Under the pieces are notes generated by a model that was given only the letters and a program-made list of their open reading frames with translations, had not been told where the DNA came from and ran no database searches. A DNA stretch of 58,743 nucleotides from an uncultured Gammaproteobacteria bacterium (lineage in GTDB: Bacteria; Patescibacteriota; Microgenomatia; Levybacterales; UBA12049), in the NCBI GenBank assembly GCA_964646925.1, contig CAZYIC010000001.1:1-58743 (forward strand), in the 5' to 3' direction. This document shows positions 5,135-53,857 of this stretch, piece after piece. Position 1 is the stretch's first letter. Every line of letters starts with the position of its first letter. The translations under genes and the position numbers were made by a program.

Positions 5135-5473
5135 CTGAAATTCTCCCGCCTCTGCTTTGCTTTAGACAGGCAAATCCTCCATAGACGGGGAACGTTTGAC
5201 GTTCCGGGCAGGCATTTCGGCCGATTCTTCTCTAACTAACAATGTAAGATTGTACCGAGATTGTACCGATACGGGATCGGAATAGCTTGGCGATGTGGTA
5301 CAATTTTCTATTGCTCTCCTTCTAAACCTGCCCGCAAATGCTACGCAAAGCGTTGCAGGCGGGGGCGGGCAAGCGTGAAAAAACGTCACTCTCAGCGCGG
5401 CAATTGTCAAGCTCAGCTTGACGCAAAAATTTTTTTTAAATTCCAAATTTAATCCACCTCTCGGGGATTTCAG
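5135..5473. ncRNA. Unclassified GC-rich, highly self-complementary segment: candidate structured RNA or nest of palindromic elements
   Basis: Lies in a 445-nt gap. Local G+C is about 63% (5341-5400, hand count) against about 30% in the flanks. It has a terminal helix (5135-5148 with 5462-5473) and at least 6 internal helices. There is no plausible ORF and no RNase P, tmRNA or SRP signature. Confidence 0.4.
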
Positions 5474-50145: not shown

Positions 50146-50634
50146 CTACTCAGTTACCTCTACTTTACCTACATCCATTAACCAACCTGCATACTGCGCT
50201 TTTTGAGTTTCTCCCCAAACTTTGATCTTTTTTCCAATAAAGCCGGATAAATCCAAAGTCGAAGACGTCAGATAAACATTTTGACTGTCTCCGCCGGGAC
50301 GAACCAGATGGAATTGACCCTCCCCATTAATTCCGCCGTTTTTCAAAGTTCCGCTTGCGGTATCTTTAAACGTTTTTGTGTCTCCCGATCCTACAACAGT
50401 TCCTTTTGAAACTTTAGAGGAATCGATAAATCCTGAGGTGGGGGTATTTCCGCCGCCTCCTCCTTTGATAGCGCTTAATGCATAACCGGTAACTCCGCCC
50501 AAAACAATAGATATAATTAAAAAAATCAATAATTTTTGCGTAAAAATAGATTTATTCGTACTATTATTGAAGTTATGAATTAAGGGTTTTTCGGTCGACA
50601 TGTCTTTTCCCGGGCCGCTTGATTTCTTTTCCAT
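50146..50634 (-). CDS. Hypothetical membrane-anchored protein
   Basis: 162 aa. One TM segment, a Gly-rich linker and a small beta-rich domain. No family recognised. Confidence 0.45.
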   Translation of the reverse strand: MEKKSSGPGKDMSTEKPLIHNFNNSTNKSIFTQKLLIFLIISIVLGGVTGYALSAIKGGGGGNTPTSGFIDSSKVSKGTVVGSGDTKTFKDTASGTLKNGGINGEGQFHLVRPGGDSQNVYLTSSTLDLSGFIGKKIKVWGETQKAQYAGWLMDVGKVEVTE

Positions 50635-50693
50635 AGATATATATTCTCCTAGTTAATCACAAAACTTCTCTTTTGGCAACCCCGAATTGACCA

Positions 50694-50702
50694 TGCTATA
50701 AT
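50694..50702 (+). promoter_or_regulatory. Extended -10 promoter (TGCTATAAT) 9 nt upstream of the paralog-1 ATG
   Basis: TTGGCA-N18-TGCTATAAT. Homologous to the box upstream of paralog 2 (cATGyTATAATrCAC). Confidence 0.5.
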
Positions 50703-50711
50703 GCACCTAAT

Positions 50712-51308
50712 ATGACTGAGGGTAGAGAAAGCCATCGAAGAGATCTTGAAACAGATCTTTTTGCAATAGCAAGAAGATCTGAAACCATTGTGAATAAGTT
50801 GCTCGAAAATAAACATCCATACGCAAAGAAAATAGATGATGGAAACAAGATGGCTGCTTTCTTTTTTGATAACGGTATAGACCTAACTATTGGAATTTTG
50901 GATCATGATCCTAAAGGTATAGATTTAAAACCCCCAATCTATTAGTTTAACATACATACGGACAATATCTCACAGGTCACGAGCCGCTATGGTTGGGTAT
51001 CAAATACTACAATAGGAGGAGATAATAAACCTTATTGCGTAACTAATTCATTCTTTTTTGATTCCGAGGGCAAATCAGTAAAAATTGAAATGTTTACCTT
51101 GCTTCAAGACGGAGACGAAACACCTGAAGAAGCTTTATTAGATTATTATAACGATGATAACGAAATAGAACCGACAATAAAAAGACTTGATGTTGTTCCC
51201 ACACAAGAGCCACAAGTAGTTCCGCTAGATGGCGGCGACTATGAAAAAATACTGTATTTTTTAGATAAGATAGAATCTGGAGAATATCACCAACCTCTTA
51301 ATTATTAG
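50712..51308 (+). pseudogene. Paralog 1 of an unknown protein family; single reading frame interrupted by an in-frame TAG at 50943-50945
   Basis: Track ORFs 50712-50945 and 51090-51308 are in the same frame with only this one stop between them. The stretch between TAG and the next ATG still encodes sequence homologous to paralog 2 (SFFFDSEGKSVKIEM versus VYLFDSNGKAVKVEV). Confidence 0.7.
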
Positions 51309-51402
51309 AAAGTAACTATAATAACTCTCTCACTACGTTCACTACGTTTGCAAATATTCTCAACCTTCCAGGTTACGTAGATTCGCTATCTACTATTATT
51401 GC

Positions 51403-52074
51403 CTAATCATCTAGGGTCAAATGCTTAATCTTTTCCAATTCTTTTCCGTAGCCAATCTGATCGAAAACAAACCTTTTGTATTCTTGAGGATTTTTGAAGT
51501 GACTAAGTACGGGTTCCATTTCTATTTGCGATGAATTTCCAATAATATAGTCAGGAAGAGACGACCAAGGATAGGAAAAAAGATCATCTTCCCTTACCAC
51601 ATTAGAAACTACCGGATTAAGATGAATATAACGAGAAAGATGCAATAGTTGCTCATCAGTTTCAACGTGGACAGACTTAAAAACCCCTTGGAACAAAGGG
51701 CCAACTCTTTCATTTAAAGTATTAAAATACCTAGTATAGCTGTTTGTAAATTGACTTGTAAATTTAGATATACCGTTGTCTTGATTTTGTTTAAGAAGAA
51801 AGTGAAAATGATTAGGCATTAAAACAAAAGCCACAATATCAACAAGTTTCTCAGTTTTCTGCAGTGAGCCCAAAAGTTGTTGGCGTTCTTCCTGAGAAAA
51901 CTCTTTAAACCTTGCAAGCGAAACGGGAGGATGTGCATGTCTATAATAAGAGAATGTAAGCATTGCTTGTTTGTGCTCGGCTCTCGAAATAAAAGTGGGA
52001 GCTCTCGCGACACCTCGATTAAATATATGATAAAACTCGCCATTAACCAATGGTGTGCGACGAACAAAAGACAT
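51403..52074 (-). CDS. IS200-like Y1 (HUH) tyrosine transposase of the REP-associated (RAYT/TnpA-REP) type
   Basis: 223 aa. YHIFNRG, HUH motif MPNHFHFLL, and catalytic Tyr region SRYIHLNPV. Confidence 0.8.
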   Translation of the reverse strand: MSFVRRTPLVNGEFYHIFNRGVARAPTFISRAEHKQAMLTFSYYRHAHPPVSLARFKEFSQEERQQLLGSLQKTEKLVDIVAFVLMPNHFHFLLKQNQDNGISKFTSQFTNSYTRYFNTLNERVGPLFQGVFKSVHVETDEQLLHLSRYIHLNPVVSNVVREDDLFSYPWSSLPDYIIGNSSQIEMEPVLSHFKNPQEYKRFVFDQIGYGKELEKIKHLTLDD

Positions 52075-52135
52075 ATATTCTTTGTAATAAATAAAAGGAC
52101 AAAAGTCAAGAGGTTGAGAGGCTATTTAACCCTCC

Positions 52136-52192
52136 AGGTTAAGGAATAGGTTACAGGTTAAGGAATACAGGTTAAGGAATAGGTTAAGGAAT
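52136..52192. repeat. Tandem array of AGGTTAAGGAAT (4 copies plus one AGGTTAC) upstream of the RAYT promoter
   Basis: Copies at 52136-52147, 52155-52166, 52169-52180 and 52181-52192. Ends in the palindrome GGAATTCC (52188-52195). Confidence 0.85.
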
Positions 52193-52214
52193 TCCTGTCT
52201 CAAAGCTCCAATCA

Positions 52215-52223
52215 TGTTATAAT
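52215..52223 (+). promoter_or_regulatory. Extended -10 promoter (TGTTATAAT) 8 nt upstream of the paralog-2 ATG (52232)
   Basis: Homologous to the paralog-1 promoter box. Confidence 0.5.
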
Positions 52224-52231
52224 ACACAGCT

Positions 52232-52858
52232 ATGAAGAACGAGCGAAACACTGGAATAAACCCAGAATTAGAAATAAAAAATCACTTAATAGCAAATAGG
52301 ATTAGGGACATAATGTTAAGAAATGATACTGATCCTGATAAGTAATGGGCTGACATACTGGATTTTTGTAGCCCTATTGATCAACAGAGATTAGTGCTTA
52401 CTACCATTGTGAAAGAAAAAGAAGGAGAGGAAGTGGTTGAATTAGATTTCAAAGTGCCACCAGGACTCACGCGGACAATCTACTACTTTGAAATAAATCC
52501 TGCAAGAGAAAGCAGAACTGAGCATCAACCCACGTCTCAATACGGAAATTTACCATCTAGAGTAATAGGTCTTGACGATAAACTCTACCAAATACGCAAT
52601 GTCTATCTTTTCGATTCTAATGGCAAAGCAGTAAAAGTTGAGGTTGTATCAACTGACCAAGAAGATGAAGAAAGCCTTAATGAATACTTAGCGGAAGATG
52701 GATATTCTGATGAAGAAAAAGAAAAGTTAAAAAGACTAGATTTTATTCCTACTGAAGAACAAAGAACAATTCCATTGCGCCCCGGAGATTATGAACAGGT
52801 ATTATATTTTTTAGATAAAATCGACATGGGAGAATATAGGCCGGAGTGGTACTTATAG
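52232..52858 (+). pseudogene. Paralog 2 of the same family; the frame from ATG 52232 is interrupted by an in-frame TAA at 52343-52345. A truncated product from GTG 52394 remains possible
   Basis: ATG 52232 lies in the same promoter context as paralog 1 and in the same frame as track ORF 52394-52858. My hand translation found only one stop between them. Confidence 0.55.
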
Positions 52859-53857
52859 CTTTCTTAATTCCTCATCGATAAATTCATCCAGATCTCCATC
52901 CAGAACTGCATCCGTATTGCCCGTTTCAAAATTGGTTCGCAAATCTTTTACCATATGATAGGGGTGTAAAACATAAGAACGTATCTGATTTCCCCAACCC
53001 GGAGTTTTGTATCCCCCTTTTAACTTCTTTTCTTCTTTTTTTCGTTCTTCTTCTGTAAGAACCCACAATTTTGCGCGTAAAATTTTTAATGCATATTCCC
53101 GGTTTTGAGCCTGGAATCTTTCTGTTTGAGCAGTAACAATTATTCCTGTTGGCTTATGCTTTAATCTTACTGCGGTTGAGACTTTATTGACATTCTGTCC
53201 ACCATGTCCTCCGGCTCTAAAAAAATCCCATTCCAAATCATCCTCTTTAATTACTGTCTCCTCATTATTGCCAACATCAGGCAAAACCTCTACCAATGCA
53301 AAAGATGTTTGGCGCAGATTGTCAGCGTTATATGGAGAAAGTCTAACCAGCCTATGCACGCCAGCTTCGCCTTTTAGATAACCATAAGCATATTTGCCAT
53401 TAACTGTTAACGTAATGCTTTTATATCCCGCTTCTTCTCCGTAAGTCTCATCAATTATCTCGAACCTAAATCCTTTTCTCTCGCAATACCTCGTATACAT
53501 TCTAAAAAGCATTTCCGCCCAATCCATCGCCTCTACTCCGCCTTGACCTGCATGAATAGATAAGATTGCGGAATTTTTGTCATACACTCTTCCCAAATAA
53601 AGAAAGATCTCAAGCTCTTCCAATAAATTTTTTGCATCTTCAAGCTTATTATTAGCTATTAAATCATTAAGCGCCTCAGCTTTTGCAATTTCCGCTTGGA
53701 GATCAGACATCTCCTTCATTCTTGAAGCAGCTTTCTTATGATCCTGCCAAAAATTCGGCTTCATACTTTCTGCCTCAATTAACCTTATTTCTTGCCTTTT
53801 TTTATCAAGATCAAACTTTTCCAATAATTTATTAACTCTTTCTTTTATCTCATCCAT
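52853..53857 (-). CDS. prfB: Peptide chain release factor 2, with no programmed frameshift site
   Basis: GGQ motif ([12 protein letters not shown]). RF2-type region [20 protein letters not shown], with SPY where SPF is usual. Uninterrupted from MDEIKERV. Confidence 0.9.

Follow-up and report, generated by a model that had tools for sequence, protein, structure and literature searches.

What does a transposase-like gene act upon when it stands between two paralogous genes, bracketed by short hairpins and tandem repeats, and is its product responsible for the palindromes that lie in the same DNA? The question is raised by a 58,743-nt stretch (the window), which is contig 1 of a 0.91-Mb source genome (G000; 57 contigs, 94% complete) from a member of the Levybacteria (Patescibacteria). 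One gene of the window encodes a protein of the HUH/Y1 class that resembles the REP-associated tyrosine transposases (RAYTs; REP, repetitive extragenic palindrome). The original prediction, made from the window alone, took it for a single-copy RAYT with a GTAG hairpin beside it, and for a candidate mobilizer of the palindromes of the window, a link that it called unproven. We arrive at a different reading, to which we give a probability of about 0.65, that the gene encodes a RAYT-type nuclease/transferase acting on single-stranded DNA (ssDNA), of the kind called TIRYT, and would form the core of a ~790-bp unit bounded by a hairpin of its own.

The enzyme and its copies

51403..52074, (-) strand: gene for a RAYT-like HUH/Y1 nuclease of 223 aa, with HUH motif N88-H89-F90-H91, catalytic tyrosine Y149 in SRYIHLNP, and a YPWSS tail motif

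The open reading frame (ORF) is intact, with its stop codon at 51403-51405, and encodes both PNHFHFLL and SRYIHLNP; its full motif set is NHFH, GPLFQG (containing FQ), YIHLNP and YPWSS. In a profile search Pfam Y1_Tnp (PF01797) is matched with 32.7 bits (E = 9.3e-8), above the cut-off of 23, and the same profile is matched by all 47 homologs of our protein alignment. Within that alignment H89, H91 and Y149 (RYIHLNP) are invariant, and the YHxxNRG strand and the YxWSS motif of the tail vary little if at all. The NCBIfam equivalog REP_Tyr_transpos (NF047646) gives 54.6 bits, under its cut-off of 80.

Searching the PDB with the single sequence gave no match, and a PDB profile search gave weak ones (2XM3, E = 1e-3; 4ER8, E = 0.075), so that a fold search was needed. 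The AlphaFold2 model is of high quality by its own scores, with a predicted local distance difference test (pLDDT) value of 92.8 and a predicted template-modeling (pTM) score of 0.88. The top Foldseek match in the PDB is 4ER8, in which E. coli TnpA-REP is complexed with a REP hairpin (E = 7.6e-7, TM score 0.66 on the target). The entries 4ER8, 2A6M, 2VJV and 2XMA are all matched at probability 1.00, with the IS608 and ISDra2 TnpA proteins ranking after TnpA-REP. The C-terminal tail is helical in the model. No Pfam match to Bac_DnaA_C, HTH_23 or HTH_28 was found in this tail at E ≤ 0.1 among the 47 members, and a diverged helix-turn-helix (HTH) remains compatible with it. No tnpB partner is present. 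We conclude that the product is an intact RAYT-like HUH/Y1 enzyme, closer to TnpA-REP than to the TnpA of IS200, and on this point the original prediction was right.

It was wrong in taking the gene as single-copy. Seven intact copies are carried by the source genome, including the present one (contig 1, here C1); they are 42-51% identical, and all have the HUH motif and the tyrosine. Across a comparison set of 41 genomes the family is found in 26, with 0-9 copies per genome and a patchy distribution even within a genus. More broadly, at least 7,883 clusters (90% identity) score at E ≤ 1e-5 among 8,000 candidates scored, and 361 clusters (50%-identity representatives) at E ≤ 1e-30.

C1 itself has kept its place. 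In three other assemblies orthologs with 85-87% identity share the site between prfB and the genes for a 156-aa protein, ftsE and ftsX; a syntenic ortholog of 85% identity is that of GCA_016186645 (Candidatus Levybacteria). Two orthologs serve for comparison below, L009 (85% identity) and L014 (87%). The close orthologs of three other clades are also syntenic, across genera. More distant copies lie in other contexts, as do the members of the pairs L034/L035 (78% nt identity) and L023/L043 (in one genome). In four non-syntenic pairs the homology runs from the left hairpin to just past the right hairpin, ~770-800 bp. Long synteny together with hairpin-to-hairpin homology elsewhere argues for a unit that is mainly inherited vertically, over long periods, and that would occasionally duplicate or relocate whole. 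In the present lineage it appears to have long occupied the prfB-ftsE interval, passed on by vertical descent.

The same observations bear on whether the ~790-bp unit could be an autonomous IS200-like insertion sequence (IS) that still transposes, the seven paralogs then being seven old IS lineages. A lone tnpA between subterminal hairpins has the size and layout of IS200, and the extent of homology between copies in different contexts, the unrelated surroundings of L034/L035 and L023/L043, and the patchy spread are all as this would have it. Yet there is no near-identical pair of copies in any of the 41 genomes, as the original prediction would have expected of something other than an ordinary multi-copy IS. 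The divergence of the seven copies and the synteny of C1 and the three other clades speak the same way, as do motifs of the NHFH and Y...NP type rather than DH[VI]H and Y...Q, a length of 223 aa against ~150 aa for IS200 TnpA, and the missing tnpB. We therefore regard an active IS as unlikely. The gene is neither a single-copy RAYT nor an ordinary multi-copy IS.

Hairpin modules at the two ends

The flanks of C1 contain the following features.

52081..52109, (-) strand: promoter-like site, with -35 box TTGACT at 52104-52109, N17, -10-like TACAAA at 52081-52086, and then 6 nt to the ATG
52110..52142, (-) strand: left-end module, reading in gene orientation as hairpin TTAACC-TGGAG-GGTTAA (52126-52142), spacer ATAGCCTCT (52117-52125) and inner half-site CAACCT (52111-52116) abutting the -35 box
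52136..52192, (-) strand: tandem array of the outer hairpin arm and a 5-nt spacer, (ATTCC-TTAACCT) x4 and one short unit, placed outside the hairpin, 5' of the promoter
51359..51376, (-) strand: right-end cognate hairpin, in gene orientation GTAACCT-GGA-AGGTTGAG, with core AACCTGGAAGGTT at 51362-51374
51377..51393, (-) strand: degenerate inner half-site and spacer of the right-end module, folding here as GTAGAT-AGCGA-ATCTAC (the GTAG hairpin)
51330..51347, no strand assigned: tandem duplication of a 9-mer, TCACTACGT x2, directly outside the right-end hairpin; lineage-specific, and not in orthologs L009 and L014

Every motif listed in the original prediction exists, and the coordinates given for it are right to within one base. 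The inverted pair said to bracket the gene exists as CTCAACC at 51359-51365 and GGTTGAG at 52112-52118, the latter one base from the predicted 52113-52119; between the GTAG hairpin and the stop codon there are 9 nt. A further pair of 16-nt segments, 51362-51377 and 52128-52143, matches at 14 of 16 positions. It had been described as an imperfect direct repeat, and we read it as the cognate hairpin pair (AACCT-GGA-AGGTT). The 12-mer AGGTTAAGGAAT occurs at 52136, 52155, 52169 and 52181, together with a partial AGGTTAC unit, and the array ends in GGAATTCC (Tandem Repeats Finder scores 60-69). The suggestion that this array is iteron-like gains from the comparison, in that its unit repeats the outer arm of the cognate hairpin.

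As a recognition element, however, the GTAG hairpin is rejected. Like the 12-mer and the 9-mer, it is found at this locus only in the whole genome. The corresponding segment is AGGTGGCGAATCTGC in L009 (AGGTGG-CGAATCTGC) and AGGTAGTGAATCTAC in L014 (AGGTAG-TGAATCTAC); the L009 equivalent of the hairpin, GTAGGT...ATCTGC, retains 4 of 6 Watson-Crick pairs. The conserved cognate is the hairpin of the 16-nt repeat. Its feet read ...ATTCC|TTAACC and ...CTACG|TAACCT with no GT[AG]G, and the sole GTAG is 18 nt away, in the degenerate inner half-site. The GTAG hairpin is a lineage-specific fold of that half-site and its spacer. The array is variable too, its unit being GAACTCTTTAACCT x2.5 in L009, and L014 having no array, and half-site arrays of this type evolve fast. 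An Rfam search over 50600-52900 gave no match.

When the loci of the seven copies are placed side by side, each is found to have its own short hairpin on both flanks.

This copy (contig 1): TTAACC-TGGAG-GGTTAA upstream; AACCT-GGA-AGGTT downstream
Contig 8 paralog: CACCC-TTG-GGGTG
Contig 9 paralog: AACCCC-A/T-GGGGTT
Contig 10 paralog: TTCCACC-TCTAA-GGTGGAA
Contig 22 paralog: CCGAT-CCCGT-ATCGG
Contig 30 paralog: CACCTGGAGGGTG
Contig 44 paralog: GACCTCAGAGGTC, doubled

We compared the flanks of 33 gene-oriented loci, 6 from the source genome and 27 from relatives and assemblies, taking as the statistic the longest word common to the 150 nt upstream and the 150 nt downstream, with 380 genes of the source genome as control. 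A shared word of at least 10 nt is present at 30 of the 33 loci. At 22 of them the word reaches 14 nt or more, as it does for 6 of the 380 controls (Mann-Whitney p = 3.6e-18). An automatic search found perfect matching hairpin pairs at 20 of the loci, placed 25-63 nt 5' of the ATG and 7-41 nt 3' of the stop codon. At 15 loci searched with up to 3 mismatches, no third, in-frame copy of the hairpin was found within the coding sequence. A common plan can be drawn for each end. On the left a hairpin (X-loop-X') is followed by a spacer of ~10 nt (often TAGCT) and then by X overlapping TTGACA; on the right X' is followed by a spacer (often AAGCTA) and the hairpin. The two ends are thus inverted modules, each with a palindrome. 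Where arrays occur, as they do at several other paralogs and in relatives, their period is 10-15 nt, the repeated element is always the outer arm, and they are always gene-distal. When the genome was scanned for perfect hairpins preceded by A[AG]GCTA, 24 matches were obtained against 11 in shuffled sequence, so that the scan does not discriminate and was abandoned.

The position of the promoter is part of the same plan. TTGAC begins exactly 35 nt before the start codon at 16 of the 33 loci, and within 33-37 nt at 19. Since the -35 box, 17 nt, the -10 box and 6 nt account for the whole distance to the start codon, a leaderless mRNA is probable. Both the array and the left hairpin lie upstream of the promoter, which points to a role at the level of DNA.

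In a maximum-likelihood tree the hairpin sequence follows the protein clade across genomes, families and orders. The stems differ from clade to clade yet stay complementary: AACCT/AGGTT, CCACCT/AGGTGG, CACCC/GGGTG, ACACC/GGTGT, CCGAT/ATCGG and AACGAT/ATCGTT. Hairpin and gene also co-occur. The 13-mer AACCTGGARGGTT was found in 4 of the 41 genomes, with three hits in G000, four in G004, and one each in G003 (at a contig end) and G011; seven of these nine fall in G000 and G004, the sole genomes with this RAYT clade.

Two other observations were made on the hairpins. In otherwise identical hairpins with flanks in unchanged orientation the loop can be inverted, as between L002 (G000 contig 10) and L024 (G013), with CTA versus TAG, and among the contig-22 family sites, with CCCGT versus ACGGG; such small inversions suggest that hairpin or cruciform forms exist in vivo. 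In G004 a hairpin of the C1 type (AACCTGGAAGGTT, contig 10:24857-24869) has another RAYT paralog, of 44% identity, at a distance of ~200 nt, which hints at cross-association or nesting of modules.

An arrangement of palindromes and arrays next to a promoter can also be viewed in another way, as operators or iterons in double-stranded DNA (dsDNA), serving autoregulation or being origin-like (compare the iterons of circovirus Rep), in which case the dispersed copies would not arise from catalysis by the enzyme. The half-site abuts or overlaps the -35 box at most loci, the arrays, with a period of 10-15 bp, lie upstream of the promoter, and to judge by the loop flips the identity of the loop is not read. 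However, the same module is also present 3' of the stop codon, where no promoter is expected, the HUH motif and the catalytic tyrosine are invariant across the family, and precisely bounded modules of 31-39 nt are found within unrelated genes, as described below. On balance operators or iterons seem an improbable explanation of the whole.

Solo modules and the palindromes of the window

The module of each paralog recurs elsewhere in the source genome, at 1-9 solo sites. These are often in frame within conserved genes, namely uvrB, gatB, thyA, guaA, dinB, murT, a gatD-like gene and rsmI. The element of the contig-44 family is a sharply bounded double hairpin of 39 nt, and the solo modules within unrelated genes span 31-39 nt. 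The copy in uvrB (contig 26:1091-1129) lengthens the gene by exactly 13 codons (39 nt) in comparison with relatives of the same genus; it encodes STSEVGGTGPQRS, and these 13 residues are missing from seven relatives. In G004 (L062) the same surface loop of uvrB holds a different insertion of ~27 aa, and by this comparison the loop would be a recurrent landing site. The family of C1 has its solo copy in thyA (contig 20:16229-16266), where 27 of 30 positions match the left module of L014. The surrounding thyA loop (contig 20:16200-16280) is hypervariable and in frame, with the RAYT-cognate module in G000, AAATCTC x4 in L051 (G005) and AAGCGAA x4 in L052 (G002).

One solo module lies within the window.

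5264..5300, (-) strand: solo module of the contig-22 family, ACCACATCGCCAAGCTATT with CCGAT-CCCGT-ATCGG and the half-site repeats CGGTACAATCT x2

It is part of an intergenic repeat composite (5140-5370), in which the contig-22-family module with CGGTACAATCT x2 is accompanied by CCTGCCCGC/GCGGGCAGG palindromes. The composite sits in the loop of a simple palindrome, which in G005 is continuous at the orthologous position (flanks 91% identical). We considered this as a clean empty site for the module at 5266 and rejected it; the G005 site is without the module, but the difference is the ~200-nt composite and not insertion of a single element. On contig 2 of the source genome (33295-33354) an CACCTCGGAGG triple repeat reads ...GTCAAGCGC-CACCTC-C-GAGGTG..., which has the X'-spacer-hairpin plan with no matching paralog in this genome, and may be an orphan solo module.

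These modules are distinct from the abundant palindromes that the original prediction tentatively linked to the enzyme. On that account the gene would be a canonical single-copy RAYT mobilizing the GTCATYCTGA...TCAGRATGAC (family 1) and ATGACCC...GGGTCAT families. The number of paralogs does correlate weakly with the number of family-1 ends over the 41 genomes (rank correlation rho 0.34, p 0.03, phylogeny ignored). The source genome has 47 family-1 ends, and there is none within 2 kb of any of its paralogs. Genomes G009, G016 and G011 contain 42, 60 and 13 ends with no PF01797 match, and conversely six genomes with 4-9 paralogs have at most four ends. The absence of the enzyme from end-rich genomes was the very circumstance under which the prediction was to be given up. 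Together with the lack of nearby ends it led us to rule out the enzyme as mobilizer of the family-1 and family-2 palindromes. Flanks holding a different, private hairpin, a score below the REP_Tyr_transpos cut-off and a cognate hairpin with no GT[AG]G at its foot add to this, and we assign the canonical-RAYT account a very low likelihood indeed. A tempting but wrong assignment, the gene as driver of the GTCATYCTGA palindromes, is thereby removed. These palindromes reach 42-105 ends per genome in G009, G016 and G024, which have zero or one Y1 gene, and their spread therefore needs another explanation.

We return to the reading of C1 as a TIRYT-like enzyme with its own hairpin. By analogy with E. 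coli TnpA-REP and IS608 TnpA (PMC3333891, PMC3479197, PMC8266576), the enzyme would bind its cognate hairpin on ssDNA, for example at a replication fork, cut beside the hairpin and rejoin the strands. A rare strand transfer would then copy a solo module of 30-40 nt to a new location (thyA in the case of C1) or move the unit whole. The half-site at the -35 box and the half-site array would probably be extra sites for targeting or autoregulation, or else products of repeated cutting and rejoining. Catalysis on the hairpins, the strand used, the site of cleavage and the role of the array are all what we infer from this analogy.

Several observations weigh against this reading. The single hairpins, with stems of 5-7 bp, are weak as ssDNA (z -1.2 to -2.9, with energies of -2.6 to -3.6 kcal/mol), and z = -4.25 was obtained for the double hairpin 3' of the stop codon. 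The significance of the hairpins therefore rests on the comparison with other loci and not on folding energy. A strict consensus scan passed over the promoter, because TACAAA has no T at position 6, and the promoter rests instead on positional conservation across loci. The family of C1 has just one solo copy, which in thyA takes the place of a similarly long stretch and is not a clean insertion. The flips of loop orientation between orthologous hairpins argue against strand-specific reading of the loop. Finally, a palindrome with direct repeats of its half-site would also suit a dsDNA operator for a dimeric binding protein.

A more far-reaching proposal is that the seven pairs are active, mutually orthogonal systems of ssDNA cut-and-paste and the source of the palindromic peptides inserted in frame in such housekeeping genes as uvrB, gatB, thyA, guaA, dinB and rsmI. 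The arrays would then be molecular scars, or else iterons, at a nicking site composed of hairpin and iterons, as in the origins used by the Rep proteins of the CRESS-DNA (circular Rep-encoding ssDNA) viruses. We offer this tentatively, and judge it doubtful. If true, a large clade of programmable HUH enzymes, as yet undescribed and with specificity codes that are short and readable, would exist in the Patescibacteria.

Two genes on the (+) strand flank the unit.

50712..51308, (+) strand: flanking paralog P1; its frame is interrupted by TAG at 50943-50945 (where its paralog has Tyr), and a short intact ORF lies at 51090-51308
52232..52858, (+) strand: flanking paralog P2; its frame is interrupted by TAA at 52343-52345, and an intact ORF runs from a GTG start (52394-52858)

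They are paralogous, as had been predicted, with ~44% aa identity over ~120 residues, and have no other copy in the source genome. In L014 a decayed remnant of P2 separates prfB from the RAYT gene; L009 has none. P1 and P2 look like an old neighboring gene pair in decay, rather than cargo of the RAYT unit.

Comparison with known systems

We found no published literature on RAYTs or REPINs (REP doublets forming hairpins) in the Patescibacteria. The closest known kind is the TIRYT or TIRtron, and the protein probably belongs to subclass 2.1 of the TnpA-Y1 proteins, an assignment made by motifs and length against the published table. Quentin et al. 2018 (PMC6006769) equate this subclass with the group 1 RAYTs of Bertels (PMC5581495) and with most of the TIRYTs of Di Nocera et al. 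2013 (PMC3733652). They describe it by NH[YF]H, FQ, Y[IV]HLNP, an SS tail, a median length of ~238 aa and C-terminal matches to HTH families of Pfam (Bac_DnaA_C, HTH_23, HTH_28), and they found no REP-like structures for it. Their table gives Y---Q, DH[VI]H and a core-only protein of ~150 aa for the IS200/IS605 TnpA (subclass 1.1).

C1 shares with the TIRYTs the NH[YF]H / FQ / Y[IV]HLNP motifs, the SS tail and the length (~220-240 aa, here 223 aa), and the presence of several diverged copies per genome at ~49% identity. In both, the gene lies between inverted, partly self-pairing flank modules (here CTCAACC/GGTTGAG and the hairpins), and the families to which the flank repeats belong are only moderate in size or low in copy number. 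The published core of the terminal inverted repeat (TIR), GGGGWSAS, is fitted exactly by GGGGTGAG of the contig-8 paralog; the inner repeat GGTGTCAA of relatives is similar, and the present locus has AGGTTGAG. The differences are that none of the 47 members here has a Bac_DnaA_C or other HTH match in Pfam, that in the flanks a short hairpin is joined by a spacer and by a third half-site, in many cases with arrays of half-sites in tandem, that the left module includes a -35 box whose distance from the ATG is fixed at 35 nt, and that the host is a member of the Patescibacteria, outside the sampling of the published surveys. Group 1 or subclass 2.1 is the largest and least understood group of RAYTs and has been reported without REP-like partners. 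The large clade in the Patescibacteria shows clear, private hairpin partners that track the protein tree.

The REPtron, comprising a RAYT (TnpA-REP) and its REPs or REPINs, is the best structural and conceptual analogue, as known from E. coli yafM, PDB 4ER8 and Pseudomonas (PMC3333891, PMC3479197, PMC8266576). The top structural match is 4ER8 and the Y...NP motif is common to both. In both, too, the gene is bracketed by a cognate hairpin family, which co-evolves with each paralog, and repeats occur also inside genes. In contrast to the canonical RAYT (subclasses 2.2, 2.4 and 2.5) with its conserved W[QE], the present enzyme has FQ, its hairpin has no GT[AG]G guide, and its score is under the NCBIfam equivalog cut-off. 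There are 1-9 solo copies per family (one for C1) rather than the tens to hundreds of a REP or REPIN, and seven paralogs in 0.9 Mb. Seven co-resident pairs of enzyme and hairpin offer a compact set on which to study hairpin reading by HUH/Y1 enzymes, and could supply orthogonal HUH tags for the covalent coupling of protein to DNA.

With IS200 the unit shares the HUH/Y1 fold, a size of ~0.7-0.8 kb with subterminal hairpins at both ends, and occasional relocation whole. It differs in having Y...NP and not Y...Q, NHFH and not DH[VI]H, and a C-terminal extension of ~70 aa, in lacking near-identical copies, and in its long-term synteny.

Lastly, the solo modules are comparable with the Rickettsia palindromic elements and the in-frame REPs (Di Nocera 2013), being hairpin modules placed in frame in surface loops of uvrB, gatB, guaA, dinB and rsmI while leaving the genes unbroken. 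What differs is that the modules found here correspond to the flanks of one particular Y1 gene resident in the genome. In ultra-small genomes a resident gene is thus linked to palindromes inserted in frame in essential genes.

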